Shown here piece by piece: positions 38,688-54,424 of a DNA stretch of 64,000 nt. The notes beneath the pieces were generated by a model that made no database searches, was not told the DNA's origin, and saw only the letters and a program-made list of their open reading frames with translations. Source of the DNA: Patescibacteria group bacterium (GTDB taxonomy: Bacteria > Patescibacteriota > Minisyncoccia > UBA6257 > UBA9933); contig JBBTPY010000007.1 in assembly GCA_038065955.1 (NCBI GenBank), positions 29,232 to 93,231 on the forward strand. The letters run 5' to 3'. The translations under genes and the position numbers were made by a program. Each line of letters opens with the position of its first letter. Positions within the stretch are counted from its first letter, which is position 1.

Positions 38688-40937
38688 TTATTTGATGCTG
38701 TTTTTTAATGCCTTTAAAATTCCCTCAATGTCTTTTTCGTGGCTGTAATTTTGAATAATTTCAAAAGACTTTTCCCCAAATTTTTTTCTTTTTTCCAAAT
38801 TCTTAATTAAATCTTTTAAATAATCTGCCAATTTTCCAACATTGCCGACTGGAAAAATATAACCATTTCCATCATTTTTAACTAAATCCGAACCGCAGCC
38901 AACCATATCAGAAATAATAACCGGCAAGCCAAAACACATTGCTTCATTGACTACCAGCCCCCATGTTTCGCCTATCCCTGACGGCAAAACAAAAATATCG
39001 GCCATTGCGTAATATTGCGACAATTCTGTTTGATTTTTAAAACCAACGAAGTGAACATTTTGAAGATTATTTTCTTGTGTATATTTTTCAAGCTCCGGCC
39101 TCAATAAACCATCACCAACGAAAATTAAATGAATATTATGTATTGTGTATTTAGTATTTAGTATTTCGTATGCCTTCAATAAATCTATTGGCCGTTTTTT
39201 TTCTATAAATTTTCCTACAAAAAGAATGGCAATATCATTTTCTTTAATTCCCAATTCATCTCTAAATTTCTGTCTTTTATTTTTTAAATTTTCAGCCGCC
39301 GCCATATATCGCTCATTATCCACCGCATAAGGAACGAAAAACAATTTTTCTTCCGGCACGCCGTAATATTGATAAAATTTTTTGTTTTCTTCGCCAATAT
39401 ACAAAAAAGCGCTGATATGTTTAAAAAATCTTTTCAACACAACCGTTTTAATTTTCTGCTTCCATCCGTTTTTTAACAACTCCTGATTTAAAGGGCTTTC
39501 TCCTTGTAAAATAACCGGCGTATTAATAATTAAAGCCGTTAAAAACGCCAACCAATTTGTAAATAAATTCCAGCCGTAAATTAAAACAGTGCCGTAACGA
39601 TTTTGAATCAATTCTTTAATAATGCCGAAATTCAACTGCCCCCAAAAATTACTTGAAGGGCGCAGTGAAAAATTTTTAAGAAATTTATATCTATAACCTT
39701 CTAAAATCGGTATATCCCATTGCACTTTTGCCTTAAATTCCGGATCAATTGACTTTTGATTTACGCCAAAATCCCAATTAAAATACGCCGTTAAATCAAT
39801 TTTGCCGGAAGCGGCAATTTTACGAAGCAAAGGCGCCTGATATTGGATTGCATGCGACATAATAATCGCCAATTTCGGAATTTCCAATAAATTCAAGATT
39901 TCTTTTACGCGCTTTTTAAAATTATCTTTGCCGTATTCATTAAGAATTGCTTTTCTGATTAAGGGAGCGTTAAAAAATATTTTTGGCGCCTTGCCATTTA
40001 AAATGCCAATTATTGAATTTTTTAATTCTTGCTGATTATCGGAATTAATAATATATCCCAATTTATCATTAAAAATTTCTTTTTCCGAACTCTCTCCTTG
40101 GCTGCCGCCGATTATAGGCTTGCCGCAAGCAAGCGCTTCAAGCAAAACAATCGCGGGAAATCCTTCTTTTTTTGAAGGATAAGCAAAAACGTCCGCTAAA
40201 TTATAATAATCAACCATTTCCTCGTCTTTAGCGGGGCCCGGCAAAATAACATTTTTTTCCAAACCCAGTTCTTTTACGAGATTTTTTACGCGCTCCGCGT
40301 CATTGCCTCCGCCGACAAGCAAATATTTCGCATTTGGAATTTCTTTTACAACATCGGGCATCGCCCTTACCACTCTTTCATAGCCCTTATTATCCGCTTC
40401 CGAATAAGAAAGGCGGCAAATAGTCAAAATTATTTTTGAATTTTTTAAATTATGCCTTTCAATTAAATTCTGCGATTTCTCTTTGATATAAAATCTTTCG
40501 CCGTCAACGGAATTCGGCAAAGTAAGAATTTTTCCCGCCACTTCCGGAATTTGTCTAATAACATTTTTAGCGGCTTGGTCAAAAAGTTTAATGATAAATT
40601 TCGCCGATTTTAGCGCCCGCTTATGCAAGGCAGATTCAATATTAACAACTTCAATACCATAAACATTGACTGTATATTCTATGCCTAATATTTTTTTTAC
40701 AAAATAACAGATTGGAGCAAACGCGATATGCGAAGAACAGATGATATCCGGCTTTTCTCTGACGGATTCCAAAAAAACTCTAAAAATAAAAAATAGTTTC
40801 TGAAATAAGCCGATACCGTAAAGCGGAACAAAAAAAATATCCGCTTCGGCTTCTTGAAGCGCGCCCATAAATTCTCTGTTATATTTTTCAATTCCGCCAA
40901 TTTTATTCGTATCAGCGGCGATAAAAAGAATTTTCAT
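38688..40937 (-). CDS. tandem double-GT4 glycosyltransferase (two GT-B modules fused)
   Basis: 749 aa; first module MKILFIAADTNKIGGIEKY...GFPAIVLLEALACGKPIIG; second module from about aa 350, ...GETWGLVVNEAMCFGLPVIISD. Confidence 0.8.
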   Translation of the reverse strand: MKILFIAADTNKIGGIEKYNREFMGALQEAEADIFFVPLYGIGLFQKLFFIFRVFLESVREKPDIICSSHIAFAPICYFVKKILGIEYTVNVYGIEVVNIESALHKRALKSAKFIIKLFDQAAKNVIRQIPEVAGKILTLPNSVDGERFYIKEKSQNLIERHNLKNSKIILTICRLSYSEADNKGYERVVRAMPDVVKEIPNAKYLLVGGGNDAERVKNLVKELGLEKNVILPGPAKDEEMVDYYNLADVFAYPSKKEGFPAIVLLEALACGKPIIGGSQGESSEKEIFNDKLGYIINSDNQQELKNSIIGILNGKAPKIFFNAPLIRKAILNEYGKDNFKKRVKEILNLLEIPKLAIIMSHAIQYQAPLLRKIAASGKIDLTAYFNWDFGVNQKSIDPEFKAKVQWDIPILEGYRYKFLKNFSLRPSSNFWGQLNFGIIKELIQNRYGTVLIYGWNLFTNWLAFLTALIINTPVILQGESPLNQELLKNGWKQKIKTVVLKRFFKHISAFLYIGEENKKFYQYYGVPEEKLFFVPYAVDNERYMAAAENLKNKRQKFRDELGIKENDIAILFVGKFIEKKRPIDLLKAYEILNTKYTIHNIHLIFVGDGLLRPELEKYTQENNLQNVHFVGFKNQTELSQYYAMADIFVLPSGIGETWGLVVNEAMCFGLPVIISDMVGCGSDLVKNDGNGYIFPVGNVGKLADYLKDLIKNLEKRKKFGEKSFEIIQNYSHEKDIEGILKALKNSIK

Positions 40938-50694: not shown

Positions 50695-52409
50695 TGCGTC
50701 TTAACATTTGATATTTGACCTTTAACATCTGACGAAAGCCATTTTTCAAACGGAAAAGTGAAGCCCATTTTCGGGCGAGTGAATATTTCTTCGGGCAATA
50801 AATCGCGCGTCGCTTCAACTAATAATGATTTATTTATGTCTTTTCCTAATTTTATTTCCGGCGGCAAACTGCTTAAATATTCAACGAGCGGATGATCTAG
50901 AAACGGCACCCGGACTTCAATGGAATGATACATTGACATAAAATCAGTGTCTTTAAGAAGCTGATTTTGAAGATAAAATTTTAGTTCTAAATAAGAAAGT
51001 AAATCAACAGAATGAAGCGTTTCGGCAGCCGAAACGCCGTAAGAAAACTCATCTATAAAATCTTTCACCTCGCTTAAATTGATATCTAAAATTTTCGCAA
51101 CTTCTTGCGACGCAAATAACCCTCTAACGCCCAAATAAAAACTTAAAATATCATTATTGGCGAAATAACTTAATTTTGAATATTTATCGCCGAATAAATC
51201 GCTTAATTTTAGCGGTGATTTTAACAATCGCGGCAAATTTTGAATTTTTCTCAATACTTTCGCTTTCTTAAAATGCGAATAGCCGCAAAAAATTTCATCT
51301 GATCCAAGTCCGGAAAGCACGGCTTTTAGCCCCGCTTCTTTAGCGGCTTTGGCAATAAAGAAAGTATTGACGCCGTCAATAGTCGGCTGGTCCATTGCTT
51401 CAAAAATTTCGTCGAACGAATTAAAAAAATCCTGTTTTGTAATTTTTATTTCCCGATGATTACTTTTTATTTTTTGCGCGACCAATCGCTGATATTTTTG
51501 CTCGGAAAATTCCGGTTCGTCAAAAATAATTGAAAGAGTGGTTATTGGATTTTTTCTTGATTGCGCCGCCAAAGCCGCAACAACGGACGAATCCAATCCT
51601 CCGCTTAAAAACACGCCCAGCGGCGCGTCACTGATTAAATGATAATTAATTGATTTATCAAGCAATTGCTTTACATTCTCCGCCGCTTTTCCAAAACTAA
51701 TGTTGTTTTTATTATGGAAAAATTCCAATGAATCATAATACTGAACCAACTTTTGCCTGCCATCAGCTTCGCGAACCAAATAATTACCTGCCGGTATCGC
51801 AAAAACATCTTTAATGGTTGTCATTGGCAATGGCACGGACCCGAACAATAAAAACCCGATATAAGCCTTAGGATTTTTAACAACCGGAATTAAACCGCTT
51901 CCAGTAATCGCTTTAACCGTTGAAGCAAAAACCAGTTTTTCGGTGTCGCTGAAATAATAAAGCGGTTTAATGCCGTAACGGTCTTTGACCAGAAAAAGTT
52001 TTTTATTTTTATCGTCCCATAATCCAAAAGCGAACATTCCCCTTAACATTGAAAAAGATTTTTCGCCGTATTCCGAATAAAGCGCCAAAATCATTTCGGT
52101 ATCGGTTTTTGTTTTGAATTTATATCCTTTTTTCTCTAAATCTTTTTTTAATTCTAAAAAATTATAAATTTCACCGTTAAAAGTAATTGATAACTTGCCA
52201 TATTTCATCGGTTGATGACCAGCTTTTGATAAATCCAAAATAGAAAGCCGCCGGTGGCCAAGAAAAATACCGTTTTTTTTATCGGAAAAAATTCCTTTAT
52301 CGTCCGGGCCGCGGTCTTTCTGCGAAAAATTCATTACTTCAACCGCTATTTCAAAATCTTTTATATTTTTGGCTTTTCCGCCGTAATAAACGCCAGAGAT
52401 TCCGCACAT
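50649..52409 (-). CDS. asnB: asparagine synthase (glutamine-hydrolysing)-family amidotransferase
   Basis: 586 aa; N-terminal MCGI (Cys2 nucleophile), PP-loop LSGGLDSS. Confidence 0.85.
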   Translation of the reverse strand: MCGISGVYYGGKAKNIKDFEIAVEVMNFSQKDRGPDDKGIFSDKKNGIFLGHRRLSILDLSKAGHQPMKYGKLSITFNGEIYNFLELKKDLEKKGYKFKTKTDTEMILALYSEYGEKSFSMLRGMFAFGLWDDKNKKLFLVKDRYGIKPLYYFSDTEKLVFASTVKAITGSGLIPVVKNPKAYIGFLLFGSVPLPMTTIKDVFAIPAGNYLVREADGRQKLVQYYDSLEFFHNKNNISFGKAAENVKQLLDKSINYHLISDAPLGVFLSGGLDSSVVAALAAQSRKNPITTLSIIFDEPEFSEQKYQRLVAQKIKSNHREIKITKQDFFNSFDEIFEAMDQPTIDGVNTFFIAKAAKEAGLKAVLSGLGSDEIFCGYSHFKKAKVLRKIQNLPRLLKSPLKLSDLFGDKYSKLSYFANNDILSFYLGVRGLFASQEVAKILDINLSEVKDFIDEFSYGVSAAETLHSVDLLSYLELKFYLQNQLLKDTDFMSMYHSIEVRVPFLDHPLVEYLSSLPPEIKLGKDINKSLLVEATRDLLPEEIFTRPKMGFTFPFEKWLSSDVKGQISNVKTHWSRQWAKEILKKQL

Positions 52410-52410
52410 T

Positions 52411-52989
52411 TTATTCGCTAATTATTTTTTTAATTCTCTCGTCTTCCGGCCAAAGTTGAATAATTTTTTCGCCGATTGATTTAGCCTTTTCAAGCTCGCC
52501 GGTTTGCCGATAAATACCAAATAATCCGTAAAGCGGCATCGGCAATTTCGGGCCGAAATTTAAAGTCGCCCGATAATATTCTTCCGCCTTTTTTAAATCT
52601 TCAATTTTTTGATAACGGCGCCAACGCGTTTCATATATTGAAGCCACCAATAACAACTGCTTTGTATTATTTTTTAAAATATGTTTTTCAATATAATTCG
52701 TCAATTCCGTTGAAACATTTTTCGGTATATTTTCCTGACTGACAATATTTAAAAAAGTCTGCCCGGTAAAACGCGCCGATTCCTCTCCGCCAACCGGCGA
52801 ATAATAATCAAAAACTTTGTCAAAATTTTTCTTTAATTCGTCAACTGTTCTGATTGAACCGAGGTTATTCACCGCCCGGACATATTGTTGAGCTTTGCCG
52901 AAAGGCAAAAAAGCGCCAAAAATCAAGCCGAGAACGGTCAAAATAATAAAAATAATTATAATAAATTGTGTAATGAATAACTTTGCCAT
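52411..52989 (-). CDS. membrane-anchored TPR-repeat protein
   Basis: 192 aa; N-terminal TM; TPR-like YYRATLNFGP...GIYRQTGELEKAKSIGEKII. Confidence 0.55.
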   Translation of the reverse strand: MAKLFITQFIIIIFIILTVLGLIFGAFLPFGKAQQYVRAVNNLGSIRTVDELKKNFDKVFDYYSPVGGEESARFTGQTFLNIVSQENIPKNVSTELTNYIEKHILKNNTKQLLLVASIYETRWRRYQKIEDLKKAEEYYRATLNFGPKLPMPLYGLFGIYRQTGELEKAKSIGEKIIQLWPEDERIKKIISE

Positions 52990-52993
52990 AATT

Positions 52994-54421
52994 TTAAAAT
53001 TTAGAATTTTGAGTTTTGAATTTATAATTAGCGAACGCTAAAAATAAAAACAAATTTATATAGGTCGGCAAAATGTCAAAAAGCACCAGCCCTTGAATTA
53101 AATAAGCTGTCGGAACGGCGAAAATTAAAGCTCTTTGAATCAGTAAACTGCGGCCGCTAAGTTGATTTTTCTCATTATTACTGACTAGTAGTTTCAAGGA
53201 GCGCCAATAAAATACCGCCCAAATTCCAATAAAGCTTAACAATCCCAAAATGCCGGCTTGCGTCAGGTAATCCAAAAAGATATTATGAGCCCGATCATAC
53301 CACGCGCCGAAACCTTCTTTAACGGAATAATGTTTCGGATTGTAATATTCGTCAAAGGTGTAAGAAAAATTTTCCGCTCCCCATCCTAAAATCGGCCGTT
53401 CTTTAAATCCGTCAACGGCGATTTTCCAAATAACCGTCCGGTTTTGAAAATTTTCGGCTTTAAAAGAAATGTCAAAAATCCGCGAACCGGGAATATTCTG
53501 AATAAATCGGCTGTCACGTAATAAAATCACCGAACCGACGAATAAAATAACCAAAAAGCCGATTATTAAAGCGAATTTTCTAAATCGCTTCAAAGAAAAA
53601 CCAAGATAAGCCAAAGCCGTTAAAATGGCCGCGATTAATCCCACGAAAGCGCCGCGCGTCGCCGCCAAAAAAAAGAAAATTGCGAAAACCACCGCCAGCG
53701 AACCAAGAATAATCGCCAATTTTTTTTTCTCCTCTTTTATGCAATCAACTAAAAGATAGAAAACATAAAAAAGAATAAATACCAGATAAGTCGCCACATA
53801 GGCCGGATTGCCGATTGAGCCGGCAAAACGAAAACCGCTTTCCCTAAAATCGGGACCGATAAAAGATTTAAACGTTTGGTATAAAAAACCTCCTTCGCCG
53901 GTTAATACTTCTTGAGAAACGCCGCCGATATTTCTGACAGCCGTTTCGGCGTCAAGATATTTCAAACCAGCGCCAACGCCGTAAAAAATCATCAAACCGG
54001 CCGCGATAATGGAAACCCAAAACATTATCCGCCAATCTTTTTTTTCAAAAAGCAAAACCGAAAGCAGGAAAAAAACATAAAGGCAGATAATTTGCAAAGA
54101 ACCTTCGCCACGCTCAAAATTTGACCAAAAAGAAAAAGCCGGGTCAACGCCGAAAAAACCGGCTAAAACGAAAATAAAAACAAACAAAGAAACGGCGATA
54201 ACTAAAGGCCGTTTAAAAACGACTGACGACTGACGACTGACGACTGACGACTTATCCTGAAGCAATAAACCCAAAAGATAAAATATCAACGCCAAACCGA
54301 TTGTCGTTCTGAAAAACGCGTATTTGCCGACGATGAACGGAAAAAGCGTTGAGACGCTTACTACTACAACGGCAAACGGGACTAAATAAAGAAAAAATTT
54401 GGAGATTTTAAAATAATCCAT
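52994..54421 (-). CDS. O-antigen ligase/Wzy_C-family polytopic membrane protein (WaaL / PglL-PilO O-oligosaccharyltransferase superfamily)
   Basis: 475 aa, about 11-12 TM helices with large extracytoplasmic loop; N-terminal half paralogous to 54425..56800. Confidence 0.65.
   Translation of the reverse strand: MDYFKISKFFLYLVPFAVVVVSVSTLFPFIVGKYAFFRTTIGLALIFYLLGLLLQDKSSVVSRQSSVVFKRPLVIAVSLFVFIFVLAGFFGVDPAFSFWSNFERGEGSLQIICLYVFFLLSVLLFEKKDWRIMFWVSIIAAGLMIFYGVGAGLKYLDAETAVRNIGGVSQEVLTGEGGFLYQTFKSFIGPDFRESGFRFAGSIGNPAYVATYLVFILFYVFYLLVDCIKEEKKKLAIILGSLAVVFAIFFFLAATRGAFVGLIAAILTALAYLGFSLKRFRKFALIIGFLVILFVGSVILLRDSRFIQNIPGSRIFDISFKAENFQNRTVIWKIAVDGFKERPILGWGAENFSYTFDEYYNPKHYSVKEGFGAWYDRAHNIFLDYLTQAGILGLLSFIGIWAVFYWRSLKLLVSNNEKNQLSGRSLLIQRALIFAVPTAYLIQGLVLFDILPTYINLFLFLAFANYKFKTQNSKF
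54219..54253. repeat. heptanucleotide tandem repeat (ACGACTG)x4 + ACGACTT inside the Wzy_C gene; candidate slipped-strand contingency tract
   Basis: Read directly at 54219-54253; encodes KSSVVSRQSSVV on minus strand; unit length not divisible by 3. Confidence 0.8.
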
Positions 54422-54424
54422 AGC

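Follow-up and report, generated by a model that had tools for sequence, protein, structure and literature searches.

Can a surface-glycan gene of a bacterium with a minimal genome be switched on and off by slippage of a short DNA repeat within its coding sequence? The question is raised here by a heptanucleotide repeat in a 64-kb stretch of DNA from a Patescibacteria group bacterium, hereafter the window, which the original prediction had read as a potential phase-variation switch. Patescibacteria are mostly uncultured and have very small genomes, and many of them live attached to host cells, which makes a role of their surface glycans in attachment and phage evasion probable. In a full-text literature search, neither phase variation nor contingency loci were found to be reported for Patescibacteria, and confirmed switching would be new for the phylum, although not a new kind of mechanism. 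The gene in question and the repeats that it carries are as follows.

52994 to 54421, minus strand: gene for a 475-aa protein of the Wzy_C (O-antigen ligase/polymerase) family, assigned by Pfam, which carries the tract.
54219 to 54252, minus strand: perfect heptanucleotide tract, AGTCGT(CAGTCGT)x4 in gene orientation, 4.9 units.
52993 to 53029, minus strand: imperfect period-7 tract, TTTAGAA x5.3 with 80% matches, at the C-terminal tail and stop codon of the same gene.

The presence of a 7-nt tandem repeat within the Wzy_C coding sequence was confirmed, and the repeat is perfect, (ACGACTG)x4.9. On the plus strand, four copies of ACGACTG and a final ACGACT make up its 34 nt, with 100% matches and a TRF score of 68, and it is the longest perfect tandem repeat of the window, the runner-up being 13 nt long. 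Its unique flanks are GGATAAG... and ...TTTTTAAACGGCC. The tract occupies codons 57-68 of the gene and codes for KSSVVSRQSSVV, with codons 58-68 giving SSVVSRQSSVV. When 716 kb of related sequence was shuffled with a second-order Markov model, only about 0.2 tracts of period 7 reached a self-match run of 12 or more, whereas the run of the tract itself is 27. The tract is highly non-random and made by replication slippage. Its 4.9 uninterrupted units inside an open reading frame also lie above the three-unit threshold used for heptanucleotide repeats (PMC2651432). A structural, RNA, or promoter role was considered and rejected on the basis of the DNA fold z-score of the tract (-0.8, no sign of a structural role on either strand), the lack of an Rfam family match near it, and promoter-like and terminator-like sites around it that occur at chance level only.

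The host protein matches Pfam Wzy_C (PF04932) over residues 243-398 with E=1.1e-22 and 80.9 bits against a cut-off of 31.7. A single-sequence search for a structurally characterized relative gave no match; with a profile built from 22 orthologs, matches were obtained to a WaaL-type structure, 7TPG, at E=1.4e-7 and to an oligosaccharyltransferase, 9RMK, at E=2.9e-4. Among the 22 sequences, Arg-256, Arg-314, and Asp-317 are invariant, and His-379 is nearly so. The exact 475-aa protein is recorded at NCBI as an O-antigen ligase family protein from a Patescibacteria-group metagenome-assembled genome and is present in many groundwater assemblies from the Hainich aquifer. Hydropathy predicts about 12 transmembrane segments. 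When the sides of the loops are assigned from hydropathy and the positive-inside rule, the loop encoded by the tract (residues 55-73, between TM2 and TM3, with four Lys/Arg) is predicted to be cytoplasmic, as is a second variable loop (residues 410-431), and a 79-aa loop (residues 302-380) is predicted to be extracytoplasmic. This predicted topology agrees with that of WaaL-type proteins. The AF2/AlphaFold model is of low confidence (pLDDT 59) and draws residues 58-68 as a short helix. Judging from its sequence, the gene would encode a putative enzyme of the glycan ligase/polymerase family, its role being placed by genomic context.

That context is a co-directional cluster. Its first gene encodes a 1164-aa protein in which a PG_binding domain is combined with a (TTP)n linker, and next come the two Wzy_C genes and a gene for a small TPR protein. 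An AsnB-like amidotransferase gene is found after these, then genes of the HAD, PRK-family, aldolase, NTP-transferase, and methyltransferase types, and the last part of the cluster is made up of GT2, double-GT4, and GT1-like genes. The two-gene Wzy_C arrangement is conserved in many related genomes. The paralog and the further repeats found in the cluster are listed below.

54425 to 56800, minus strand: paralog immediately upstream of the 475-aa gene, 791 aa, matching Wzy_C and TPR in Pfam.
56605 to 56631, minus strand: TTTAAACW-family tract of period 8, imperfect, where the paralog encodes the corresponding TM2-TM3 loop.
56197 to 56226 and 56807 to 56827: further tracts related to the TTTAAACW family.
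39147 to 39171, minus strand: second period-7 tract of the window, 3.6 units with 94% matches, in a loop of a 749-aa double GT4 glycosyltransferase.

It is of note that the only other period-7 tract in the window lies in the double-GT4 gene, in the same cluster as the 475-aa gene, and that octamer tracts of the TTTAAACW family also occur upstream of glycan genes. The 791-aa paralog appears split in two contigs (L001 and L010), which was rejected as evidence of switching and attributed to sequencing error. Since L001 and L008 differ from the window solely by single-base homopolymer deletions, with zero substitutions, the apparent gene breaks in these two contigs are likewise sequencing error.

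Since 7 is not a multiple of 3, gaining or losing a single unit truncates the product, and this part of the original prediction was borne out when alleles with 1 to 12 units were rebuilt in silico. Only alleles with 2, 5, 8, and 11 units are in frame. Those with 1, 3, 4, 6, 7, 9, and 10 units give products of 63-85 aa with two transmembrane helices only (70 aa for four units and 71 aa for six), so the figure of about 55 residues originally put forward for the truncation was slightly too low. Gain or loss of one unit brings a stop codon into frame at most six codons past the tract.

54213 to 54215, minus strand: TAA stop codon, entering the frame with 6 or 9 units (one gained).
54202 to 54204, minus strand: TAG stop codon, entering the frame with 4 or 7 units (one lost).

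The earliest codons at which translation could restart downstream are a TTG at codon 79 and an ATG at codon 133, the products of which lack TM1 and TM2. Such truncation would be expected to abolish function.

The original prediction would be refuted by a copy number identical in all reads and strains, and in the assembled consensus sequences, this is the outcome: at least 16 contigs from many samples span the tract, and all of them carry exactly five units. These contigs represent at least five SNP haplotypes about 0.2-0.3% apart. At least 14 of these contigs encode the exact 475-aa protein. A variant differing by one residue (L009) also has five units, as does a 695-kb long-read contig (L008, from ERZ1286166), which is unbiased regarding the tract because it was retrieved via a C-terminal fragment. 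No OFF genotype was found in any assembly examined, and all 80 orthologs examined are intact open reading frames, these being the best 80 of 551 matches and therefore subject to selection bias. Exact look-up in about 15 billion proteins found neither the predicted products of the 1-4- and 6-11-unit alleles nor any of the five possible downstream restart open reading frames; this is only weak negative evidence, since gene callers may omit such short reading frames. A similarity search with the 71-aa product of the six-unit allele returned three candidates, among which the protein P0001 did not appear, making the search uninformative; its single match, P0124, comes from a contig of another species that ends just before the equivalent loop, with no repeat visible.

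Indirect signs of possible variation come from the k=31 contigs of Logan. In a survey of 14 samples picked irrespective of the tract, through look-up of the neighboring 192-aa protein and of a 629-aa partial sequence of the paralog, contigs have one of their ends precisely at the tract in eight samples (L012, L013, L014, which accounts for four samples, L015, and L096; runs include SRR32696680, SRR32696690, ERR3858111, ERR3858128, and SRR24529256) and read through it in the other six (SRR32696692/695/697/699/702 and ERR3858110). A pure five-unit population should not break contigs at this position because the 34-nt tract holds no repeated 31-mer. The contig L096 ends in AAG+(TCGTCAG)x4, and L014 and L015 start with GTCAGTC... 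and contain 30 nt of the tract. When the break positions were modeled by simulating the k=31 de Bruijn graph, mixtures of five with six, seven, or eight units, or six units alone, reproduced these ends exactly; five units alone or mixed with four or three did not. SNP heterogeneity was rejected as the cause of the breaks, the nearest SNP (position 54283) being placed such that the break would fall about 29 nt further upstream, and the SNP haplotype of the broken contigs is that of some of the contigs reading through. The k-mer evidence points indirectly to a tract of at least six units in these eight samples.

Where that longer tract resides is a separate matter. A simulated foreign tract of at least six units with different flanks gives identical contig ends, and k=31 assemblies cannot show the flanks of the longer tract since they are never able to span six or more units. 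The CAGTCGT unit itself is found at 3-13 units in unrelated environmental contigs, including tracts of 6-13 units at GC contents of 36-71%. A scan of JGI metagenomes for at least three units of the heptamer gave at least 120 stretches, and among those listed, none lies in a Wzy gene and none in the species of the window. What argues against a foreign origin is that, among the 80 loci scanned, no other Wzy locus of this aquifer has two or more units of the heptamer of the tract, and one further Wzy locus from there (L222) has a degenerate tract only. We infer that the longer tract belongs to the locus of the 475-aa gene, where an allele of at least six units probably co-exists at low frequency.

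The history of the tract can be followed in related genomes. Orthologs at 57-72% identity (L217, L221, L222, and L016) carry a degenerate version in the same loop, equal to five units in the first three and 9 nt shorter in L016. For example, the tract of L217 reads TCGTTAG TCGTCAG TCGTTGG TTGTCGG, giving SLVVSRWLSVI, and that of L221 reads TCGTCGG TTGTTGG TCGTCAG TTGTTGG, with L222 and L016 resembling these two; vestiges of the pattern ("QDKLSVVSGQLL...") are present in homologs down to about 50% identity. The tract is therefore old, and it has decayed at about the gene-wide rate everywhere but in the lineage of the window. There the tract is perfect and shows Ser at positions where the relatives show Leu, a combination that points to homogenization at the DNA level, whereby variant units were lost and one unit was re-duplicated. 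Because re-expansion from two to five units proceeds one unit at a time, it passes through out-of-frame states. We infer that slippage has been active in the lineage of the window and that OFF intermediates were tolerated at least transiently.

Repeats of this kind recur in the family. A survey of 80 genome loci (652 kb, the best 80 of 551 matches) showed that the perfect tandem tracts in the orthologs are mostly of period 7 and less often of period 8, with periods 2-6 and 9-12 nearly absent. Perfect period-7 tracts number 12 in 110.6 kb of ortholog sequence, 3 in 70 kb of paralog sequence, and 9 in 535 kb of other (flanking) sequence, which corresponds to a 6.4-fold enrichment in orthologs over other sequence (p=4e-5). 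Within orthologs, nearly all of the tracts map to one of the two loops predicted to be cytoplasmic or to the C-terminal tail, and their unit sequences are unrelated, among them AAATCTC x4.4 (L059), GTATCAG x4.3 (L072), AATTTTC, CAATTTT, and AGTCAAT. The AsnB-like gene has period-7 tracts at one site in three genomes, with AGGTGTC, AAAGTCA x4.7 (L020), and AAGCGTC as units. The same two loops of the Wzy_C orthologs also hold other repeat types and an in-frame insertion of a GxxExxY domain (in P0010 and P0022), and the segment between the two conserved motifs flanking the tract-encoded loop has a modal length of 63 aa in most of 113 homologs, with a conserved Lys/Arg-rich pattern. A 10-aa difference in the loop between P0007 and P0010 was considered as a change in unit number; at the peptide level, the only level available for this pair, it appears to be an in-frame, hexamer-like repeat. 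The recurrence of repeats in these loops could reflect a convergent gain of switchable tracts or a piling up of repeats in tolerant loops. The first is favored by the orthologs having no tracts with unit lengths that keep the frame (3, 6, or 9) and the second by the other repeats and the GxxExxY domain in the same loops, as well as by the reported slippage bias toward heptanucleotides (PMC4679880). Given this bias, the excess of period 7 by itself needs no selection for switching.

Our preferred explanation, to which we give an even chance, is that of a low-rate frameshift switch with a dominant ON state and a one-unit-gain allele present at low frequency. Replication slippage would make the tract and keep it perfect, in a part of the gene encoding a predicted cytoplasmic loop that appears tolerant of sequence change. 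Five units hold the gene in frame, and the dominant allele in the sampled groundwater populations is always this five-unit ON state. After a slip of one or two units, translation would meet the TAA or the TAG no more than six codons past the tract, such that the slipped allele would yield only the 63-85-aa product, turning off the 475-aa paralog and leaving the adjacent 791-aa paralog intact. The locus would then behave as a low-rate frameshift switch of the kind known from neuO and pglE, and not as a fast, high-copy contingency locus. The position of the tract near the 5' end of a glycan-cluster gene with a neighboring paralog, typical of neuO and pglE, is in support of a switch (PMC13001214, PMC7157529). 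Switching may have adaptive value. The idea of a phase-variation switch thus holds as regards the frame logic, past slippage, and the k-mer signs of a longer tract, and it fails to find a counterpart in polymorphism or an OFF allele. With no polymorphism among assembled strains and no OFF genotype, the tract cannot yet be filed as a contingency locus; the repeat is real and slippage-derived, and it is a plausible low-rate switch, not a demonstrated contingency locus.

The alternative that deserves most attention, and that we regard as a tenable if less than even possibility, is that slippage left a stable and effectively neutral repeat in a tolerant loop, an in-frame remnant that is now frozen and does not switch at a rate of biological relevance. 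The contig breaks would then stem from an unrelated (CAGTCGT)n tract of at least six units, located in another member of the community or at a different place in this genome. It would account for the invariance of five units across at least 16 contigs and five or more haplotypes, for the intact state of the 80 orthologs and the failure to find OFF-allele products, and for the tolerance of the same two loops to other repeats and to the GxxExxY domain. It also draws on the identical contig ends produced by a simulated foreign tract, on the occurrence of the heptamer at 6-13 units in unrelated contigs, and on the heptanucleotide slippage bias, as far as it is described in PMC4679880. What speaks against it is that the tract is perfect whereas its counterparts in the orthologs have decayed, a difference implying that slippage turned the tract over recently, and that unit lengths of 3, 6, and 9 should build up more easily in a tolerant loop, yet are absent from the orthologs. 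Breaks in eight of 14 k=31 assemblies, and same-aquifer Wzy loci that were scanned without yielding two or more heptamer units, L222 being degenerate only, also argue against a neutral repeat with a foreign source of the breaks.

Selection might otherwise act on the peptide, with the SSVVSRQ heptad loop or its length tuning activity or interactions in three-unit steps, as the repeat-encoded N-terminal heptads of NeuO do. The modal 63-aa segment with its conserved Lys/Arg-rich pattern and the short helix drawn at residues 58-68 in the low-confidence AF2 model are compatible with this idea, which we nevertheless find improbable: the loop sequence is not conserved in the family, unrelated repeat-derived peptides taking its place, homogenization in the lineage of the window swapped the Leu of relatives for Ser, and the protein collection contains none of the in-frame products expected from 2, 8, and 11 units. 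That the tract is an assembly or sequencing artifact is more improbable by far; nothing specific speaks for it apart from the homopolymer indel errors that L001 and L008 do have, and the identical tract is found in independent assemblies made with different assemblers and platforms from many samples, so that an artifact can be considered effectively excluded.

If the tract does switch, minimal genomes would share with host-adapted pathogens a cheap, stochastic strategy of turning surface genes ON and OFF. A much broader and speculative proposition, which we think unlikely to hold in this form, is that the glycan clusters of Patescibacteria (CPR) systematically use non-triplet repeats of 7 and 8 nt as family-wide contingency switches that arose independently, with differing unit sequences, at the same sites. 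The sites proposed are the cytoplasmic loops of Wzy_C proteins, AsnB-like amidotransferases, glycosyltransferases, and the regions just upstream. Were this true, the putative unit-gain allele would be a first glimpse of phase variation in uncultured episymbionts. If, on the other hand, there is no switching, the locus exemplifies how repeats made by slippage gather in tolerant loops of membrane proteins, and it cautions against taking non-triplet repeats in glycan genes, by themselves, as evidence of contingency loci.

Among known systems, the closest analogue is neuO, the O-acetyltransferase gene of the E. coli K1 capsule carried by the CUS-3 prophage, which has an AAGACTC heptanucleotide repeat in its 5' coding region and yields a full-length product only at every third unit number, through strand slippage (PMC13001214). 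The two share a heptanucleotide repeat inside the 5' coding region of a surface-glycan gene and an ON state at every third unit number. They differ in that neuO is a long and highly polymorphic array of 3-53 units (mode 20), is OFF in 65.6% of 64 complete genomes, and has had subpopulations of 20, 21, and 22 units measured within a single culture (PMC13001214), whereas the tract described here has five units, is monomorphic in the assemblies that span it, comes with no OFF genotype, and belongs to a Wzy_C family gene of Patescibacteria. The pglE gene of Neisseria meningitidis, encoding a glycosyltransferase of protein/pilin O-glycosylation, phase-varies by an intragenic heptanucleotide repeat and belongs to a glycan module with several genes that can switch; its own switching is documented in longitudinal isolates (PMC7157529). 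It resembles the 475-aa gene in having such a repeat within a glycan pathway gene; unlike this soluble glycosyltransferase with its documented switching, the Wzy_C protein is a membrane protein for which switching is only predicted. In H. influenzae, heptanucleotide repeats are counted from three units, the promoter tracts of hmw1A and hmw2A have 13-38 units, an intragenic (AATTTTG)14 is found in hmw1a, and tetranucleotide repeats characterize the lic and lgt genes; Haemophilus tracts differ between strains (PMC2651432), and tetranucleotide slippage occurs at about 1e-4 per generation, a rate measured on long tracts. With these loci, the tract has in common an uninterrupted non-triplet repeat in or beside a gene for a surface structure, but it is far shorter, and no difference between strains is seen in the assemblies. 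Finally, heptanucleotides are reported to be the commonest class of long-unit repeats in many bacteria, which is attributed to a bias of polymerase slippage (Mrazek 2007, as cited in PMC4679880), and in free-living bacteria, long repeats with units of 5-11 nt are ascribed to the mechanics of slippage and not to host-pathogen phase variation, at least where PMC4679880 treats them. The tract shares with these repeats its heptanucleotide unit and the occurrence of CAGTCGT at 3-13 units in unrelated contigs; unlike them, insofar as they are described in that source, the period-7 tracts reported here are concentrated in two loops of the Wzy_C orthologs and in neighboring glycan genes.

The two predicted cytoplasmic loops of the 475-aa protein (TM2-TM3, residues 55-73, and residues 410-431) are sites at which Wzy_C orthologs of different Patescibacteria repeatedly hold perfect period-7 tandem tracts, as seen in 80 ortholog loci (L016-L095; the best 80 of 551 matches). 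The repeat units at these same two loops are unrelated to one another in sequence. Across the same best 80 of 551 loci, the orthologs carry 12 period-7 tracts in 110 kb, against ~0.2 by chance as judged from second-order Markov shuffles of related sequence, and any other period is far rarer than period 7. Perfect period-7 tracts in this ortholog set include:

L059 4160-4190
L072 4172-4201
L081 4169-4188
L016 5293-5312
L020 1466-1486

The heptamer of the window tract itself (CAGTCGT in gene orientation) recurs in identical form among the JGI metagenome matches listed: more than 120 environmental contigs, unrelated and with GC contents between 0.36 and 0.71, carry it in 3-13 tandem units. Of the 80 such loci examined among these matches (L097-L176), none has the tract inside a Wzy gene. 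Long degenerate CAGTCGT arrays are present in L130, L139, L148, and L168.

Within the 475-aa gene, all three strain-haplotype SNPs (window 54283, 54289, and 54308) lie 31-56 nt from the tract, and the remaining ~1.3 kb shows no variation among the contigs compared; this clustering could reflect repeat-associated mutagenesis or a small recombination patch. Relative to window 51292-56794, contigs L001 and L008 carry 4 and 10 single-base deletions, respectively, all in A/T homopolymers, and no substitutions. These deletions split the gene calls of the 791-aa paralog, the 475-aa gene, and the AsnB-like gene; they are assembly errors that make the genes look like pseudogenes. In another Patescibacteria MAG, contig L224 (2501-2682, P0124) stops right where the corresponding loop between TM2 and TM3 begins in the ortholog. 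This would fit an assembly broken by a loop repeat, as at the window tract, but the contig itself shows no repeat sequence.

The AsnB-like amidotransferase gene of the Wzy_C cluster also contains period-7 tracts, at a single insertion site shared by three genomes and flanked by QPM.Y and ITFNGE:

L016 7615-7636, AGGTGTC
L020 4234-4266, AAAGTCA x4.7
L048 6308-6332, AAGCGTC

The window copy has no insertion between these two motifs. At the head of the window cluster, a 9-nt in-frame repeat (GGTTGTCGG x6.7, 86% matches; window 59857-59916) encodes a (TTP)n linker in a 1164-aa PG_binding-domain protein, which could plausibly be glycosylated.

Tandem arrays of an octamer family, TTTAAAC(A/T), occupy loops of the 791-aa-type paralog as well as intergenic DNA directly upstream of Wzy genes in several genomes:

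window 56197-56226, 56605-56631, and 56807-56827
L221 2700-2870, ~170 nt
L031 3461-3480 and 3952-3982
L016 119-141, 366-388, and 1110-1131

Three perfect units would place a stop codon in all frames, so the copies within coding regions are interrupted.

Other kinds of sequence also occur in ortholog loops. In P0010 and P0022 (L031 4001-5917), the predicted cytoplasmic loop near the C terminus has gained a complete in-frame GxxExxY domain (PF13366, PDDEXK_3), and the peptides bordering this domain repeat with a 7-aa period (TRTQADF..., SPLKSVL...). Further orthologs carry loop peptides such as RINTDKK... and KIRINPC..., which may resemble translated hairpin/MITE-like repeat elements.
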